Assembly: GCA_017992335.1 (NCBI GenBank)
Contig: JAGOOU010000001.1
Coordinates: forward strand, 1 to 28,399
Source: Candidatus Parcubacteria bacterium
GTDB lineage: Bacteria; Patescibacteriota; Minisyncoccia; Minisyncoccales; Minisyncoccaceae
Reading direction: 5' to 3'
DNA length: 28,399 nt
This document shows positions 1,582 through 12,879 of the stretch, piece after piece. Both the position numbers and the translations under genes were made by a program. The notes beneath the pieces are model-generated. The model had not been told where the DNA came from. It ran no database searches and saw nothing but the letters and a program-made list of their open reading frames with translations. Within the stretch, counting starts at the first letter, position 1, and every line of letters starts with the position of its first letter.

Positions 1582-2943
1582 ATGGAATTAGAAAACCTTT
1601 GGCAAACGGTTCTTGCCCAAATACAATTAAATATTTCTCCGGCTAATTTTGCCACATGGTTTAATAATACTAAAATCATTTCTTTAGAAAAAGATGTTAT
1701 TACTGTTTCTGTGCCTAATTCTTTTTCAAAAGAATGGTTGGAACAAAAATATAGTAAGGATATTTTAAAAATTATTCACTCTATTGATGAAAATATAAAA
1801 AGCATTGTTTTTGTTGTTGATCCAGGAAAAACAAAAAAAATAACTAGTAGTAAAAAGACTGTTTCTAGAGAAGATATTTTAACAGAACAATTGGGCTTTA
1901 ATGAATTAGAAGTAAACAAAGAAACAAACCTTAATCCTCGCTATACTTTTGAGAATTTTATCGTCGGTCCTTTTAATGAAATGTGTTACGCTGCTGCTAC
2001 GGCAGTTGTAGAAGAACCTGGGAAAAATTACAATCCCTTATTTATATATGGGGGAGTAGGATTGGGAAAGACTCATCTTATCCAGGCTATAGGCAACAAA
2101 ATTAAAGAAGATAATCCTGATAAAAAAGTAAAATATCTTCCAGCAGAAAAATTAATCTCTATAATTGTAAACTCTATTAAAAATCACAACATAGAAGAAT
2201 TAAAAAAAACACTAAGAGAGTTAGATGTTTTAATTGTTGATGACATTCAATTTATTGCTGGAAAAGATAAAACTCAAGAAGAATTTTTCCATACTTTTAA
2301 TTCTTTGTATCAAAAAAATAAACAAATCATATTATCCTCTGATAGACATCCAAATACTATTCCCGCTATAACAGAAAGACTAAAATCAAGATTCAAAGGA
2401 GGGATGATCTCCGACATTTCTTCTCCTGATTATGAAACAAGAATTGCTATTTTGAGAAAAAAAACAGAAGAAAAAGGGGTTGATCTTTCTAAAGAAGTTC
2501 TTGATTATATTGCTAACAACATTCAGAGAAACATTAGAGAGCTTGAAAGTGGTTTAAATAGATTGATAATCTTTAAAAAAGCGAATAACAAAAATCCTTC
2601 TTTAGAAGATGCGAAAAAACTACTTAAAAACCTTATTGTTTCTCCTTCAAAGATAACGAATTATAAAAAAATAATACAATCGGTTACTGAGTTTTACGAT
2701 ATCCCCAATGGAAACATGTTTTTTACATCCAGGAAAAAAGAATTTTCCAAGCCAAGACAAATAGCAATGTATTTACTTAAAAAAGAACTGAAAATGTCTT
2801 ACTCTGAAATTGGGAGAAAATTTGGAGGAAAAGATCACACAACCGTAATTCACTCTTGTCAATTAGTTGAAAAAGAAGAGGAAGAAAATGAAAAAACTCA
2901 CCAAGAAATAGAATTAATTTTACAGAGAATTTACAGCAATTAA
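1582..2943 (+). CDS. dnaA: Chromosomal replication initiator DnaA
   Basis: LNPRYTFENFIVG, Walker A GGVGLGKTH, Walker B LIVDDIQ, domain IV RQIAMYL and DHTTVIH. Confidence 0.98.
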   Translation: MELENLWQTVLAQIQLNISPANFATWFNNTKIISLEKDVITVSVPNSFSKEWLEQKYSKDILKIIHSIDENIKSIVFVVDPGKTKKITSSKKTVSREDILTEQLGFNELEVNKETNLNPRYTFENFIVGPFNEMCYAAATAVVEEPGKNYNPLFIYGGVGLGKTHLIQAIGNKIKEDNPDKKVKYLPAEKLISIIVNSIKNHNIEELKKTLRELDVLIVDDIQFIAGKDKTQEEFFHTFNSLYQKNKQIILSSDRHPNTIPAITERLKSRFKGGMISDISSPDYETRIAILRKKTEEKGVDLSKEVLDYIANNIQRNIRELESGLNRLIIFKKANNKNPSLEDAKKLLKNLIVSPSKITNYKKIIQSVTEFYDIPNGNMFFTSRKKEFSKPRQIAMYLLKKELKMSYSEIGRKFGGKDHTTVIHSCQLVEKEEEENEKTHQEIELILQRIYSN

Positions 2944-7456: not shown

Positions 7457-7934
7457 ATTTATAACTATCGAGATGATAAGCACAGCAGACAGCAATAGCT
7501 AATGCATCAGCAGCATCATCTGGTTTTGGAATATCTTTTAATTTTAAAATATGCTTTATCATTTTTTGAACCTGAGGTTTTGTTGCTCTCCCATAGCCAG
7601 CAACAGCAGTTTTTGCTTGAAGGGGAGTGAATTCTTTAATTGGTACATTTTTATTTGAAAAAGATAAAAGAATAACGCCTCTTGCTTGGCTTACAGGAAT
7701 AGCTGTTTTGAGGTTTTTAAAAAAATAGAGAGATTCAATAGCTGCTATTTTAGGCTCGTGTATTTTTATTATTTTTTCGATTTCTTTATTAATCGTTATT
7801 AATCTTTCTCCCATTTCTAACTTAGGGGAAGTTTGGATTGTTCCATAATCAATACATGTTAGTTTTTTTTGATGAGATCTAATAATGCCAAAGCCAGTAG
7901 TAGCTGTTCCTGGATCAATACCTATGATAATCAT
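7443..7934 (-). CDS. ruvC: Holliday junction resolvase RuvC
   Basis: IIGIDPG, AIE, QARGVI and DDAADALAIA; the acidic catalytic residues are present. Confidence 0.96.
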   Translation of the reverse strand: MIIIGIDPGTATTGFGIIRSHQKKLTCIDYGTIQTSPKLEMGERLITINKEIEKIIKIHEPKIAAIESLYFFKNLKTAIPVSQARGVILLSFSNKNVPIKEFTPLQAKTAVAGYGRATKPQVQKMIKHILKLKDIPKPDDAADALAIAVCCAYHLDSYKFKDS

Positions 7935-8653
7935 AAATTAAAGTTAGTATAAATATTCTGGACATCATCATTATCATCTAAAGTATCGTACAGCTTTTGA
8001 TTTTTTTCTTTAGTGTTTTCATCTATATCAATATTTTCCTTAGGAACCCATTCTAAAATATTAGACTCTAGTTTTATTTTGTTTTCTTCTAGGAAGTTTT
8101 TAACTTTATCTAATTCGTCTGGCTTTGTATAAATTACAAGGCCTTCTTCCTGCCAATCAAAGTTTTCTGCTCCAGATTCAATAAGCAAAAGCTCTAACTC
8201 TTCTTTATCTTTTATGTTTTCTTTGCTTATAATAATAACTCCTTTTTTTTCGAACATCCATTTTATTGCTCCTCCTTCAACCATTTTTCCGCCACTTTGA
8301 CTTAATATTAGTTTTATTTCTCCTAAAGTCCTGTTTCTATTATCAGTAATACCCTCTATAATTATAGCCGTATTGTTTGGTCCATATGCTTCTAAAATAA
8401 ACTCCTCATAACTACATCCTTCTATTTCTCCAGATCCTTTTTTAATAGCTCTTTCAATGCTTTCAGAGGTCATGTTGGCCAGTTTTGCTTTGTCAACAAT
8501 AGTTCTTAGTTTGGGATTAAATGTTAAATCAGCGCCTCCATCTCGAGCTGCTATTGAGATTTCTCTAGCTAATTTAGAGAATATTTTACTTTTTTTTGCA
8601 TCAGCTACTCCTTTTTTAAATCTAATAGAGTGCCAATGAGAATGTCCGCTCAT
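7931..8653 (-). CDS. yebC: YebC/PmpR family protein
   Basis: MSGHSHWHSIRFKKG, EAYGP, TDNRNRT, GGAIKWMFEKKG and LDDNDDVQNIYTN; ATGA overlap with ruvC. Confidence 0.95.
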   Translation of the reverse strand: MSGHSHWHSIRFKKGVADAKKSKIFSKLAREISIAARDGGADLTFNPKLRTIVDKAKLANMTSESIERAIKKGSGEIEGCSYEEFILEAYGPNNTAIIIEGITDNRNRTLGEIKLILSQSGGKMVEGGAIKWMFEKKGVIIISKENIKDKEELELLLIESGAENFDWQEEGLVIYTKPDELDKVKNFLEENKIKLESNILEWVPKENIDIDENTKEKNQKLYDTLDDNDDVQNIYTNFNL

Positions 8654-8684: not shown

Positions 8685-9290
8685 TCAAGGCAATAACTTT
8701 TTAATAAAAACAAGAATACCTCCTGAGGCAATAGAAAGAATAAAAGAAAAAAGATAAGTATAGTTATTATTGTTTTCAAGGAGAGGTTTTTTAATTTCTA
8801 TTTTTTCTTCCTCAATAAAATAACTATTTTGTTTTTTAGGAGTTCCTCCTGTGTCCAAGCTTGTTTGCCAGCCATTTTCAATTTTTTCCATTGTCTGTTT
8901 AGTTTTATTATTGCCATATGGCCACCCTTGTTTAAAATCAAGAACTTCGATAACTGTGTTGTTATTAATTAATTCAATCTTTTCTCCATTATTGTTTAAA
9001 GCTTTATTAAAAAACAAATCTACTTCTTTCTGACTTTTGTTTCTAGAAAGAAGATAAAAGCCTTGAGAGGGAATATTGCCGGTTAACTTGATTATTTTTG
9101 TTTCAGAAATTCTTATTTCCCAATTATCAAGAGAAATGTTTTTATCAGAATTGTTGTATAATTCTATCCACTCATTAGAGCTAGAAGATTCGTCTCCCAT
9201 CCAACAAATTTCATTAACGAAAACACTGGCTTTTGCTATATCGAAAAGAAAGATTAAAATTAAAGCAAGTTTTGCTGATTGTTTTCGCAT
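8685..9290 (-). CDS. Exported lamin-tail-domain (LTD) protein with C-terminal membrane anchor
   Basis: Signal-like N-terminus; LTD-type motifs VFVNEICW, NEWIELYN, LNNNGEKIEL and GTP; hydrophobic C-terminus followed by KK. Assigned by motif recognition only. Confidence 0.7.
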   Translation of the reverse strand: MRKQSAKLALILIFLFDIAKASVFVNEICWMGDESSSSNEWIELYNNSDKNISLDNWEIRISETKIIKLTGNIPSQGFYLLSRNKSQKEVDLFFNKALNNNGEKIELINNNTVIEVLDFKQGWPYGNNKTKQTMEKIENGWQTSLDTGGTPKKQNSYFIEEEKIEIKKPLLENNNNYTYLFSFILSIASGGILVFIKKLLP

Positions 9291-10249
9291 TTTATTTTTA
9301 AATGCTTATAGGCTAATTCAGTAGCAATTCTTCCCTTGGATGTTCTTTTTATTAATCCTAATTGGATTAAATATGGTTCATATATCTCAAGAATAGCGTT
9401 TTTCTCTTCAGAAGTGGAAGCTGATAATGCTTGAAGCCCAGCTGGGCCACCATTAAATTTTTTAATAATAGTTTCCAAAATTTTAATATCTGCTGGTTCT
9501 AATCCTAGATCATCTACTTCTAAAAAATCTAAAGCTTTATCTGCTAAATTTTTTGTAATTACATTTTTATTTTCTATTTGGGCAAAATCTCTTACTCTCT
9601 TTAAAAGTTTGTTGGCAGTTCTTGGGGTAAACCGGGACCTTTTAGCAATTTCTTTGACTGCTTCTTCTTCGATCTCTGCATTTAAAATTTTAGAAGATTT
9701 TTTAATTATCTTTTCTATTTCTTCATCTTTATAAAAATTCAATTGTAAAACTGCCCCAAATCTACTTCTTAAGGGAGCTGATAAAAGATCTATTCTTGTT
9801 GTTGCTCCGATTAATGTAAAATGAGGAAGATTAATATCAATACTTTTAGCCATTGGTCCTTTTCCTAAAATTAAGTTAAGTTTGAATTCTTCCATTGCAG
9901 AATAAAGATATTCTTCTACAAAACGGTTGATTCTATGAATTTCATCAATAAAGAGAAAATCTCCTTCATTTAAATTGGTGAGAATAGCAACAAGATCTCC
10001 TGATTTTTCAATAACAGGGCCAGATGTTGTTTTTATTTCAGCTCCAGCTTCTTTAGCTACAAGATAGGCTAATGTTGTTTTTCCTAATCCAGCAGGTCCG
10101 TAAAGTAGAATGTGATCAGGGGATTCTTTTCTTTCTTTAGCTGCGTCAACAATCACTTTTAAGTGTTTTTTAATTCTTTCTTGGCCTATGTAATTATCCC
10201 AATTTTTAGGCCTTAAAGTAGATTCAATTAGCTCTTCGTTTAAGTCCAT
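9260..10249 (-). CDS. ruvB: Holliday junction branch migration helicase RuvB
   Basis: LRPKNWDNYIGQ, GPAGLGKTT, FIDEIHR, GATTR, FTPRTANKLL and YEPYLIQ. Confidence 0.97.
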   Translation of the reverse strand: MDLNEELIESTLRPKNWDNYIGQERIKKHLKVIVDAAKERKESPDHILLYGPAGLGKTTLAYLVAKEAGAEIKTTSGPVIEKSGDLVAILTNLNEGDFLFIDEIHRINRFVEEYLYSAMEEFKLNLILGKGPMAKSIDINLPHFTLIGATTRIDLLSAPLRSRFGAVLQLNFYKDEEIEKIIKKSSKILNAEIEEEAVKEIAKRSRFTPRTANKLLKRVRDFAQIENKNVITKNLADKALDFLEVDDLGLEPADIKILETIIKKFNGGPAGLQALSASTSEEKNAILEIYEPYLIQLGLIKRTSKGRIATELAYKHLKIKCENNQQNLL

Positions 10250-10256
10250 TTAGGTA

Positions 10257-10285
10257 TTGACAAATTTTAATAAGTGTGTTATCTT
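10257..10285 (+). promoter_or_regulatory. Promoter firing into the ruvB-pilB gap, where no + strand CDS exists
   Basis: Perfect TTGACA (10257-10262), 17 bp, extended -10 TG-T-TATCTT (10280-10285). Confidence 0.65.
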
Positions 10286-10296
10286 ATATATGTAAA

Positions 10297-10425
10297 ATGA
10301 TTCTTGAATTGGGGGTAGGGATTTTCTGTAGCTAATGGATTGTTTGGTTTTTACTGGACTTTTCCTCAGGAAAATTCTTGACTTTCAGCCCGAATGCTAA
10401 AGTTAGCCCCCAATTCAGGAATTAT
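10297..10425 (+). ncRNA. Candidate structured non-coding RNA (three-way junction); family not recognised
   Basis: 19-bp closing helix 10297-10315/10407-10425, 12-bp helix 10317-10328/10367-10379, 9-bp hairpin 10380-10404. Non-Watson-Crick pairs are G-U on the + strand. It is flanked by a + strand promoter and a + strand terminator. Confidence 0.7.
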
Positions 10426-10427
10426 TT

Positions 10428-10458
10428 AACTGCATCAATTTTTTTGGTGCAGTTTTTT
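10428..10458 (+). terminator. Intrinsic terminator
   Basis: Stem AACTGCATCAA/TTGGTGCAGTT with a T5 loop and a T6 tail on the + strand; abuts the pilB stop codon. Confidence 0.75.
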
Positions 10459-11758
10459 ATCCTGTAACTTTTTTAACTTCATCGAAACTAGTAACACCAT
10501 TCAATATTTTAATAAATCCATCTTGTTTCATTGTTGTCATGCCCTTTTCTTTAGCAAACTTTTCTAAAGCAGACGAAGAAGGAGAAGTTAGAATATAGTC
10601 TTCTGTTTCAGAATCAATAACTAATGTTTCAAAAAGACCAACTCTTCCTTTGTAACCAGTGTTATTACAATGCGCACAACCTTTTGGGTAAAATATTTTT
10701 GTGTTTTCATTTAATTCAGGAATTTCAACTTGAGAAGGCATATTTTTTAAAGTTTCTTTCATTTCTTCTAATATTTCTTTTGAAATAATTTTTGCTTCAG
10801 CACATTTAGGACAAATTTTCCTTATTAACCTTTGAGCAACAACCATATTTATTGCTGGAGCAATATTAACTGGATTTTCTCCTAAGGCAATAAATCTAGC
10901 AACAGTTCCCGCAGCATCATTTGTATGAAGCGTACTTAAAACAAGATGTCCTGTTAATGCTGCTTGGAGAGCAATGCTGGCAGTTTCTAGATCTCTAATT
11001 TCTCCAACTAATATTACATCAGGATCCTGTCTTACGATTGATCTTAATCCTGACGCAAAATCGTATCCCTTTTTAGGATCAACTTGAGTTTGGGATATTC
11101 CTTTTAAATGATATTCTATAGGATCTTCAATGGTGATTATTTTAATCTCAGGATTTTGCATTTTTTTAAGAAAAGCGTAGAGGGTAGTAGTTTTACCGGA
11201 ACCAGTAGGCCCAGTAACAACAATCATGCCGTTTGGTTTTTCGGTTTGCTGAACAAAAGTATTATAAAGATCTTTTCTTAGCCCCAAATCTTCTAGATTG
11301 ATTAAGTTTTTAGGGTTTAAAACTCTCATTACGATTGTTTCTCCGTATTCTGAAGGTAATGTAGAGACCCTGATTTCAATTTGTTCGGTTGTTTCTTTTT
11401 CCATTAAAACAGTAAACCTTCCATCTTGAGGCTTCTTTTCAACATTCAATTTCATGTATGATAAAAGCTTGATTCTAGAAACAATAGATTTATATTTTGA
11501 AGAATCAAAATTGCACACTTCTTGTAATATGCCATCCATCCTTATCCTTAATTTGCTTCCAGTCTCCTCTGCTTCAAAGTGCAAATCAGAAACATTCATT
11601 TCAATTGCTCCGGCCATGATTGTTTTTAATAGTACGCTTACTTCTTCATTCAAAAAAGCTTCTATTACTTGAGAAAAAGAAAGTATATTTTGAAATTTGT
11701 CTAAGTTTTTAGTTAAAAAAACATTATCTACATTTATCTCTCCGGTTATTTTTTCCAT
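10457..11758 (-). CDS. PilB/GspE-family type IV pilus/secretion assembly ATPase with shortened N-terminus
   Basis: SDLHFE, RIRMDGIL, PQDGRF, Walker A GPTGSGKTT, TIEDPIEY, RQDPDVILVGEIRD, GHLVLSTLHTN and the tetracysteine motif CPKC...CAHC. Confidence 0.93.
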   Translation of the reverse strand: MEKITGEINVDNVFLTKNLDKFQNILSFSQVIEAFLNEEVSVLLKTIMAGAIEMNVSDLHFEAEETGSKLRIRMDGILQEVCNFDSSKYKSIVSRIKLLSYMKLNVEKKPQDGRFTVLMEKETTEQIEIRVSTLPSEYGETIVMRVLNPKNLINLEDLGLRKDLYNTFVQQTEKPNGMIVVTGPTGSGKTTTLYAFLKKMQNPEIKIITIEDPIEYHLKGISQTQVDPKKGYDFASGLRSIVRQDPDVILVGEIRDLETASIALQAALTGHLVLSTLHTNDAAGTVARFIALGENPVNIAPAINMVVAQRLIRKICPKCAEAKIISKEILEEMKETLKNMPSQVEIPELNENTKIFYPKGCAHCNNTGYKGRVGLFETLVIDSETEDYILTSPSSSALEKFAKEKGMTTMKQDGFIKILNGVTSFDEVKKVTG

Positions 11759-12840
11759 AATAATGAAGACAGTTCCTTTTCAGCAGAAGGAAGGTTCTTG
11801 CTTTTAACAAGAAAGATTCCACCTTTGCCTTTATAAGAACCATTATAATTTGTTTTTATAACATCAATCAAAGAATCTTTTTCAGAATAAAACACACATT
11901 TAATTGATGTTGGGGAAGATTTCCCTTCCCATAATAGCATGAAAGAGGGAATAGAGAAATAGTTCTTCATTTTTTCAATAATAAAACTTAAATCAGAGGA
12001 AGAGCTTTCTAGCTCTTTGAAATCATTTTCAGATAAAGAAGAGATGTAAACTTTTTCCTCTTTTAAAAAGTTTAAATTTTTAATGATTTTTTCTAGAAGA
12101 GAAAGCTTTCTTTTTGTTTCAGGATTAATGTGATTAAAATAAATGTTTCCTCCTTGTTCGACAAGCCATTTTATAGTCGACATTGTTTCTGGATCACCTT
12201 TTTCATTTATTGAGTCTATTATTCCCCACAAAAGAAATCCAGCAGATTTTTCATCGACATTTTCCTGAATTGATTTTAAAATAGAGGACATTCTTTCAGA
12301 AAGAGACATATCTTCTTCAATAATATTGATCTCTCCATAATTTTCATTTTGAGAATTTTTATCAACATTAATTATACTACAATTATATATAGATTCAGGG
12401 CTTTCATTAAAATATTTTTCTAATTCAGAAAATGATTTAATATTAAAAGCAATAATTAAATCAAAAAAAGGAGGAAGGAAAAGAGGCATGTCCTTTTCTT
12501 CAGAAACTAATTTGCAAGAAAATTGTTCTGGTTTTATTTCGTTTCCATTTTTAGGGACAAGAGATAATTCTACGCTTCCATTTTTTCTTTCATAGGAAAT
12601 CTCAGAAACATCGCTTTTTAAAGAAATAATAATTTTCTTTTTTTGAGCTTCACCATTGAGGTATTTTATTAAATTTTCTGGATTTTTATCTTTTGGAAGA
12701 AAAATATTATGCTTATTTTTTAAAGCAAAAAAAACACCTAAAACAGAGGCGTAAACGTCTTCATCAGCGTTATTTTCAGTTACAATCACTATATTTCTAG
12801 CGCTTTCTATACTGTTTTTAATATTTTCGAATGAATCCAT
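11746..12840 (-). CDS. Degenerate DHH/NrnA-like phosphoesterase-fold protein, probably catalytically inactive
   Basis: Motif remnants IVIVTENNADED.YAS, DLIIAFN, IINVDKN..NENYGEINII and AGFLLWGII. Start moved to ATG 12840 because the track's TTG at 12879 coincides with a -35 box. Confidence 0.6.
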   Translation of the reverse strand: MDSFENIKNSIESARNIVIVTENNADEDVYASVLGVFFALKNKHNIFLPKDKNPENLIKYLNGEAQKKKIIISLKSDVSEISYERKNGSVELSLVPKNGNEIKPEQFSCKLVSEEKDMPLFLPPFFDLIIAFNIKSFSELEKYFNESPESIYNCSIINVDKNSQNENYGEINIIEEDMSLSERMSSILKSIQENVDEKSAGFLLWGIIDSINEKGDPETMSTIKWLVEQGGNIYFNHINPETKRKLSLLEKIIKNLNFLKEEKVYISSLSENDFKELESSSSDLSFIIEKMKNYFSIPSFMLLWEGKSSPTSIKCVFYSEKDSLIDVIKTNYNGSYKGKGGIFLVKSKNLPSAEKELSSLLWKK

Positions 12841-12850
12841 TTTTTTCTTA

Positions 12851-12879
12851 AAACTACTGTATTTTAGGGTAAAAGTCAA
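12851..12879 (-). promoter_or_regulatory. Promoter of the DHH-like/pilB operon
   Basis: Minus strand: TTGACT (12879-12874), 17 bp, TAGTTT (12856-12851), 10 nt, ATG at 12840. Confidence 0.55.

Follow-up and report, generated by a model that had tools for sequence, protein, structure and literature searches.

What is encoded in the 207-bp gap between ruvB and pilB, two minus-strand genes of a Candidatus Parcubacteria bacterium? The window, that is the whole stretch of DNA analysed here (28,399 nucleotides of contig JAGOOU010000001.1, assembly GCA_017992335.1), carries in this gap a complete transcription unit on the plus strand, at 10257–10460, whose product almost certainly represents a new family of structured RNA. 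An earlier note, written from the letters of the window, had proposed a plus-strand unit with promoter, folded core and terminator at this place, and every element it described was recovered. The consensus scan of the gap returned a promoter and a terminator on the plus strand only. The promoter was the TTGACA-17-TG.TATCTT that had been claimed, which is of the sigma-70 type and close to consensus, and across order and class the form TTGACA-17-TGnTAtAAT stands upstream of 87 of 100 homologues; the terminator, which had been said to work on the plus strand alone, was found there as an 11-bp hairpin followed by T6. Judging from the promoter spacing, transcription of this small RNA (sRNA) would start at about 10292, giving a core of about 135 nt and an RNA of about 165 nt with the terminator. 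A small open reading frame (ORF) or type I toxin was also sought in the gap, and nothing credible was found. The elements of the unit are as follows.

10257–10262, plus strand: -35 hexamer TTGACA, from the consensus promoter scan, with the same placement upstream of the 87 homologues.
10277–10285, plus strand: extended -10 element TG-T-TATCTT, with the hexamer TATCTT at 10280–10285 preceded by TG and a 17-nt spacer after the -35 hexamer.
10293–10428, plus strand: structured RNA core, from covariance-model matches and fold energy.
10428–10460, plus strand: intrinsic terminator, an 11-bp hairpin (10428–10454) and then a U6 tract, from the terminator scan, on this strand only.

How does the RNA fold? 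The minimum free energy (MFE) of the plus strand was -69.2 kcal/mol (z = -8.94), and none of 200 shuffled sequences folded as well; the minus strand reached -41 kcal/mol (z = -4.2). The core is a three-way junction consisting of the closing helix P1, the arm P2 and the hairpin P3, and the MFE structure leaves only 1–2 nt unpaired at the junction, in agreement with the compact junction that had been described. The hand-drawn fold of the earlier note was correct in all essentials as to the three-way junction, while its P1 of 19 bp was too short, the MFE giving 22 bp. Likewise, the excess of G-U pairs it had reported stood, but their number did not: instead of eight, the MFE structure contains 12, of which 11 lie in the core. 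The parts of the fold are listed below.

10295–10316, plus strand: 5' strand of P1, 22 bp with 10406–10427 in the MFE structure; in the order alignment, covariation is seen in each of the 20 modelled pairs.
10318–10327, plus strand: 5' strand of the lower P2 helix, pairing with 10369–10378 in the MFE structure; 10 of 11 pairs covary.
10328–10336, plus strand: 5' side of the asymmetric internal loop of P2, class consensus ..yAG plus 2–5 nt.
10337–10364, plus strand: upper arm of P2, with a GG/CC clamp beside the loop, a variable helix, a G-C pair and an apical loop that is variable or of the UUCG type.
10369–10378, plus strand: 3' strand of the lower P2 helix, from the MFE structure and order covariation.
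10379–10405, plus strand: P3 hairpin of 7+3 bp with loop CCGAAU in the MFE structure; covariation extends to all 8 modelled pairs, both in the order and in the class alignment.
10406–10427, plus strand: 3' strand of P1, from the MFE structure and order covariation.

A conformational switch had been suggested as well, based on a competing hairpin (TTTTCC-TCA-GGAAAA) and on pairing between GCTAA and TTAGC. The hairpin does exist in the sequence of the window, but the order-wide consensus cannot form it, and the GCTAA/TTAGC complementarity is not conserved among homologues; the switch is therefore not a conserved property of the RNA. A pseudoknot or loop-loop contact of the P2 loop with the P3 loop or with J3/1 was considered and rejected, as a mutual-information scan returned the nested helices and three extra nested pairs only.

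Is the unit conserved? In its own 515-kb assembly the RNA is present in a single copy. A BLAST search found one syntenic copy in each of 28 related genomes, at 72–93% identity; the promoter hexamers were among the best-conserved columns, and the terminators differed in sequence while being equivalent in form. The host belongs to the order Minisyncoccales of the class Paceibacteria/Parcubacteria, and its nearest named relative by RuvB identity (94%) is Ca. Microsyncoccus archaeolyticus PMX.50. Three covariance models were built, R1 from the family alignment, R2 from the order alignment and R3 from the P2 arm only. R1 detected the RNA in 129 of 151 genomes of the order; within the class, R2 found it in 84 of 151 genomes and R3 in 99, about two thirds, with one match per genome in nearly all genomes of order and class. 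Among 144 genomes from other classes of the phylum R2 had no match, and R3 had one that was credible.

This sole credible homologue outside the class (G444:C7:50009-50089, minus strand) has P1 and P2 with the AG../CCUCGG module and lacks P3; it is oriented divergently to ruvB, and pilB does not occur within 1.5 kb of it. Two genomes carry a second copy. In one of them (G057) the additional copy (C5:5806-5940) is nearly identical, has its own TTGACA promoter and lies 2.6 kb from the pilB-linked copy, away from pilB and convergent with an unrelated 194-aa ORF. In the other (G142) two copies stand in tandem, at C33:8260-8398 and 8419-8551.

Covariation was counted as compensatory double changes over the 48 modelled pairs. 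In the family alignment, made with MAFFT only, double changes occurred in 20 of the 48 pairs, and 94.8% of the cells were paired compared to 88.5% after shuffling. The order alignment (78 sequences) had double changes in 44 pairs and 93.2% of cells paired versus 76.2%, and sliding the partners by one column reduced pairing to about 60%. With the 72 sequences of the class alignment, double changes were again found in 44 pairs, and 90.8% of cells were paired versus 63.8% after shuffling. An alignment of the P2 arm, made by MAFFT only without fitting to a model, had double changes in 18 of 21 pairs. The check that the earlier note had called for, conservation and covariation in relatives, thus came out in favour of the RNA: the unit in the window is real and not a chance fold.

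The same data tell which strand is folded. Among all pair cells, 10.5% are G-U and 1.7% A-C, a ratio of about 6:1. R1 scored 146.6 bits (E = 9e-37) on the plus strand of the window and 39.6 bits on the minus strand, R2 reached 118.5 bits, and the models overall gave 118–147 bits on plus versus 33–40 on minus. As G-U pairs far outnumber A-C pairs, model scores on plus exceed those on minus three- to fourfold and the consensus promoter lies on plus, the functional fold is that of the plus strand; selection at the RNA level on this strand, which had been deduced earlier from the G-U pairs, is borne out by these numbers.

Which parts of the RNA are fixed and which are free to vary? P1 ranges from 16 to 28 bp across lineages, and sequence varies in the apical loop, in the loop of P3 and at the junction nucleotides. 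In other orders an extra 5' hairpin between P1 and P2 makes a compact four-way junction. Invariant across the class are the G-U/G-C base of P2, the AG of its 5' loop, the GG/CC clamp, the UC after CC and a near-apical G-C pair. At the base of P2 the conserved G-U comes first and is followed by G-C; the first G-U is kept in 67 of the 78 sequences of the order alignment. The internal loop faces a 3-nt UC(A/G) bulge, which in the class consensus lies immediately 3' of CC; in the class, conservation is 93% for the loop G and 93–94% for the U and C that come after the invariant CC. The GG/CC clamp and the apical G-C of the upper arm are identical in all 72 class sequences, the helix between them covaries, and the mutual-information scan gave two further pairs in this arm.

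Could this be a known RNA? No family matched the window at gathering thresholds in Rfam 15, and relaxed scans, which covered 411 nt of the window and 20 homologues, gave inconsistent weak matches only (AbsR25, manA-II and miRNA hairpins). The best of these, AbsR25 (RF02607), reached 26.7 bits (E = 0.013) where 47 are needed and was absent from the 20 homologues; manA-II appeared weakly in the scan of the 411 nt and did not recur in the homologues. The models work in this lineage, since RNase P RNA and transfer-messenger RNA (tmRNA) were found with them at other loci of the order genomes. These two RNAs had no match at the locus and are encoded elsewhere in the same genomes. 5S rRNA (RF00001) resembles the RNA in general topology, but its model did not match, and normal 5S rRNA genes lie elsewhere in four of five order genomes. 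Y RNA was rejected as well, with no model match to the RNA and no TROVE/Ro protein in the five order genomes, and so were the described riboswitch classes, with no model match, a P1 of 16–28 bp, a variable junction and a downstream gene on the opposite strand.

The RNA of the signal recognition particle (SRP; RF00169 and RF01854) had no model match on the RNA either, whose apical loop is of the UUCG type or variable and not the GNRA helix 8 motif. Nor was there an SRP RNA match anywhere in the five order genomes, and SRP_SPB/SRP54 domains (Ffh, FtsY) were not found in these five, in 151 genomes of the class or in 151 of the phylum, the few marginal domain matches being a Mur ligase and a uridine kinase; the SRP searches were positive in 13–14 of 14 control genomes. 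A lack of ffh and ffs in Parcubacteria has been published (PMC4508563), and absence of SRP has been reported for many members of the Candidate Phyla Radiation (CPR; PMC8080830). The non-coding RNAs found in the CPR genomes studied here were rRNAs, tRNAs, RNase P RNA and tmRNA only, with SRP RNA and proteins not found. In the source genome a DTAGR motif was sought and none was found.

The scans of the window and of the 20 homologues thus agree with the earlier statement that signatures of SRP RNA, tmRNA and common riboswitches are missing, and our literature searches brought up no account of an RNA of this kind from CPR or Parcubacteria. The idea of a new CPR-specific family is supported by the lack of an Rfam 15 match together with heavy covariation across the order and most of the class; the RNA is confined to one class with one credible outlier and does not extend over the whole CPR.

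What might the RNA do? We consider it an even bet that it is a stable, protein-bound RNA recognised through the invariant P2 loop, with a closing helix that also terminates pilB. Such an RNA would be abundant and would act as a protein-bound particle. P1 would protect both of its ends, and the invariant module of P2, with its G-U/G-C base, asymmetric loop (..AG../UCG) and GG/CC clamp, would be the recognition site for a conserved partner. Candidate partners, both hypothetical, are in first place the product of the adjacent PilB ATPase gene and in second place RNA polymerase. In addition, the hairpin of P1 or of the terminator would end pilB transcription, transcription of the sRNA would run head-on against pilB read-through into ruvB, and the sRNA gene would insulate pilB from ruvB, apparently a contiguous pair in lineages without the RNA. 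Taken separately, a function in trans as a ribonucleoprotein (RNP) falls slightly short of an even chance, and a real effect in cis on pilB or ruvB might equally well be present or absent.

The argument for a partner in trans comes from the invariant nucleotides. When both strands belong to one DNA, a change in either is matched automatically in the other, so that cis-antisense pairing would not produce invariant nucleotides in helices and in the P2 loop; invariance there beyond structural need points to a conserved partner in trans, the simplest being a protein that reads the P2 module. The second copy in G057, with its own promoter away from pilB, and the homologue outside the class, which lacks a pilB neighbour, also speak for a trans partner. 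An effect in cis is favoured by the gene arrangement, as the RNA is convergent with pilB and abuts its stop at nearly all loci, and by the two-way-terminator shape of P1; overlap of the RNA with the pilB 3' untranslated region (UTR) or with pilB-ruvB read-through is very likely from the gene geometry. As to expression, a wastewater sequencing run (X7; 32 million letters, labelled metatranscriptomic targeted capture) contained 75% of the sampled words of window positions 10290–10458, and it was not listed among the runs that contain a 2.5-kb flanking stretch. These words are a weak sign of expression, and the RNA may be highly abundant.

Several points weigh against a protein-bound particle. 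Expression, ends and abundance of the RNA are predictions; one attempt at read mapping was uninformative, as it returned contigs only, probably from DNA, with the organism at low depth. Any protein partner is hypothetical. The covariance-model alignments lean towards the modelled structure, even if both MAFFT-only alignments agree with them. Entire families whose genomes are complete lack the RNA (f12, f21, f85, f93 and f98), which makes it dispensable, unlike a core housekeeping RNP; judging from these genomes, the gene has been lost in some lineages. Finally, the near-fixed genomic position across the class is what would be expected of a purely cis-acting element.

A more specific version of the protein-bound reading, in which the RNA would be the subunit of a new, Parcubacteria-specific RNP, either as cofactor or regulator of PilB as a pilus and DNA-uptake ATPase, much as the packaging RNA of phi29 serves its motor, or serving a DNA-uptake and recombination route from PilB to RuvB, appears quite improbable; if true, an RNP working with the PilB machinery would account for the lasting link between the RNA gene and pilB throughout the class. 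Taking everything together, we rank first a protein-bound RNA that also insulates pilB from ruvB, second a purely cis-acting element, and third a 6S-like RNA or a conditional terminator.

Does the position of the RNA suffice to explain it? The two neighbouring genes in the window are:

9260–10249, minus strand: ruvB, the divergent neighbour, with its start codon 8 nt from the -35 hexamer of the sRNA.
10457–11758, minus strand: pilB, the convergent neighbour, coding for a PilB/GspE-type (T2SSE) ATPase of 433 aa with a T2SSE domain, the sole T2SSE ATPase of the source genome.

According to a purely cis explanation, the element would terminate pilB in both directions and block or tune read-through into ruvB head-on; its RNA, without a function in trans, might also pair with the complementary pilB 3' UTR or pilB-ruvB spacer, followed by RNase III cleavage. 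The genomic setting fits this well. In a survey of 22 loci from the order and 24 from the class, the RNA was convergent with pilB, and thus antisense at its 3' end, at nearly all loci, with its own 3' end mostly 0–60 nt and at most 173 nt from the pilB stop. A U-run follows straight after P1 in 53 of 124 homologues, where P1 itself is the terminator stem, and the 5' end before P1 is A-rich in 46 of the 124; such A-rich 5' and U-rich 3' flanks give P1 the predicted shape of a two-way terminator in about 40% of the homologues. With the ruvB start only 8 nt from the -35 hexamer, any ruvB transcript must overlap the sRNA unit, and no room is left for a ruvB promoter outside it; a minus-strand ruvB promoter inside the unit was sought in the window and in homologues, with no convincing conserved candidate.

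Lineages without the RNA also fit the cis explanation. In RNA-negative genomes of two families of the same order (f21, G056, G129 and G170; f12, G047 and G122), which are 94–100% complete, pilB abuts or overlaps the next gene and there is no spacer. In the three f21 genomes this gene is an unannotated ORF of about 336–359 aa, the size of RuvB, and in f12 an ORF of 226–238 aa. The spacerless pilB of these lineages suggests that the RNA gene sits antisense inside an otherwise contiguous pair, apparently pilB-ruvB. Nevertheless, a purely cis-acting element leaves the class-wide invariant nucleotides in helices and P2 loop unexplained, as well as the 6:1 asymmetry of G-U over A-C that selects the plus-strand fold. 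Moreover, ruvB is the divergent neighbour in most of the surveyed class loci but in only about half of those from the order, and the second copy in G057 lies away from pilB. We therefore regard an effect exclusively in cis as rather unlikely.

The spacer of the sRNA promoter (window 10263–10279) is itself conserved across the order, with the consensus AAAnnTTTcATAaTnTG, which is unusual for a promoter spacer. A ruvB promoter on the opposite strand was sought in this spacer, and none was convincing.

Could the RNA be a compact 6S RNA, as the earlier note had proposed? A 6S-like RNA would imitate an open promoter, bind and withhold the sigma-70 holoenzyme, and serve as the template for short product RNAs (pRNAs). 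Among the five order genomes no canonical 6S RNA was found, though RNase P RNA, tmRNA and 5S rRNA were detected, and the RNA combines a long closing helix with a strong sigma-70-type promoter. Its P1 of about 20 bp and P2 of about 25 bp-equivalents also suit this role; arms of about 20 and 25 bp resemble the downstream and upstream arms of 6S RNA. However, the 6S model (RF00013) had no match in the 411 nt of the window even at E <= 10, nor in the 20 homologues, and none of the other Rfam models gave a signal on the RNA. The RNA has no open central bubble: J1/2 has 1–3 nt here, the pairs of P1 and P2 covary as far as the junction, and the junction is compact in all lineages, the only internal loop of the RNA being 6–9 nt opposite 3 nt. 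In the 6S model search of the five order genomes the sole match, at 22 bits, was at a different locus (in G013). All this makes a 6S role for the ruvB-pilB RNA improbable.

The locus with this match (G013:C2:132190-132317) is a second sRNA unit, made up of a TTGACG-17-TATAAT promoter, a rod-shaped RNA of about 125 nt that two internal bubbles interrupt, and a strong terminator. This sRNA carries an invariant AUUCCGAACA stretch, is present in a single copy in 13 of 24 family genomes, and 15 of its 36 pairs covary; the weak 6S match occurs in one genome only. A homologue lies in the source genome outside the window (G000, contig C32, about 2439–2590, minus strand). From its rod shape and bubbles, this second sRNA may be the 6S-like RNA of the lineage; it is the better candidate, holds the only 6S score seen, and lowers the odds that the ruvB-pilB RNA plays this role.

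A riboswitch-like conditional terminator, in which a ligand or protein on P2/P3 would promote closure of P1 and the antisense read into pilB would otherwise silence pilB, seems an improbable explanation too. An aptamer-like three- or four-way junction is indeed closed by P1 and followed by a U-run, a conserved internal loop lies between invariant G-C pairs, and only the antisense of pilB lies downstream. A P1 of the length observed is far too stable to depend on a ligand, though, the junction nucleotides vary, the family to which the window belongs has a strong terminator of its own after P1, and no riboswitch model matches.

If instead the minus strand were functional, the RNA would be a structured spacer in a joint mRNA of pilB and ruvB, such as an element that governs processing or stability. 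The two genes are co-oriented and the minus-strand fold does beat its shuffles, but the G-U excess and the model scores both favour plus, and promoter and terminator are conserved on plus only; this explanation is very improbable. A chance hairpin or a miniature inverted-repeat transposable element, suggested by the long inverted repeat of 19–22 bp at the ends of the RNA, is refuted by the single full-length copy in its own genome, the one match in nearly all others, the fixed syntenic position and the compensatory changes in 44 of 48 pairs, and its probability is negligible.

How does the RNA of the ruvB-pilB gap, which we favour as a protein-bound RNA with an insulating gene, compare with known systems? 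Like 6S RNA (SsrS), it is a stand-alone, highly structured RNA with a long closing helix that locks its ends, a single copy in each genome and a promoter of the housekeeping type, and like 6S RNA it is dispensable in some lineages; unlike 6S RNA, it has no covariance-model similarity to that family, no open central bubble and a shorter length of about 135 nt. Orphan structured RNAs, of which the raiA motif RNA is an example, show strong covariation, a lineage-restricted distribution and a conserved gene neighbourhood, and no partner or function has been assigned to them. The present RNA is like these orphans in covariation, lineage restriction and tied neighbourhood; it differs from them in fold and sequence, in having no Rfam match, in being found in Parcubacteria only, and in lying antisense and convergent to its neighbour rather than upstream.

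In common with bacterial Y RNAs of the Ro RNP, the RNA has a long terminal helix formed by its 5' and 3' ends, a branched distal domain and a gene kept beside a protein gene, but neither the Y RNA model nor, in the five order genomes, a TROVE/Ro protein was found. The packaging RNA of phi29 is a compact three-way-junction RNA of about 120 nt that works with a ring ATPase motor. A resemblance to it lies in the compact three-way junction and the occurrence with a gene for a hexameric motor ATPase; in contrast to it, the present RNA has no match to the Rfam packaging RNA model, is cellular and class-wide and is encoded on the strand opposite to the ATPase gene, and contact with PilB is hypothetical. 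Bidirectional intrinsic terminators and cis-antisense RNAs between convergent genes share with it the A-rich 5' and U-rich 3' flanks (in about 40% of the homologues) and a position abutting the stop of a convergent gene, and as in cis-antisense RNAs its sequence is complementary to any pilB-to-ruvB transcript. It differs from both in its covarying insert of about 95 nt with invariant nucleotides, its own consensus promoter and the selection of the fold on one strand.

A single-copy, promoter-driven, heavily covarying and class-wide RNA is likely to be important for a group whose biology is largely obscure; the CPR or Patescibacteria have tiny genomes and very few non-coding RNAs. Should the RNP proposal be true, the RNA would represent a new class of bacterial structured RNA, and if only the gate between pilB and ruvB is true, a new form of antisense operon insulator. 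The case is clean for experiment, with gene boundaries, fold, invariant nucleotides and natural loss lineages defined; the RNA-negative f21 and f12 lineages can serve as natural deletion controls, and co-cultures of Minisyncoccus/Microsyncoccus with methanogens offer a cultivated relative.

Two further genes of the window lie next to the pair. Upstream of pilB, a 377-aa ORF (11746–12879, minus strand) overlaps the pilB start by 13 bp; at E <= 0.001 it matched nothing in Pfam or NCBIfam. On the other side, a 201-aa Lamin Tail Domain protein (E = 2e-11) is encoded at 8685–9290 on the minus strand, between ruvB and a gene of the YebC/TACO1 family (7931–8653).

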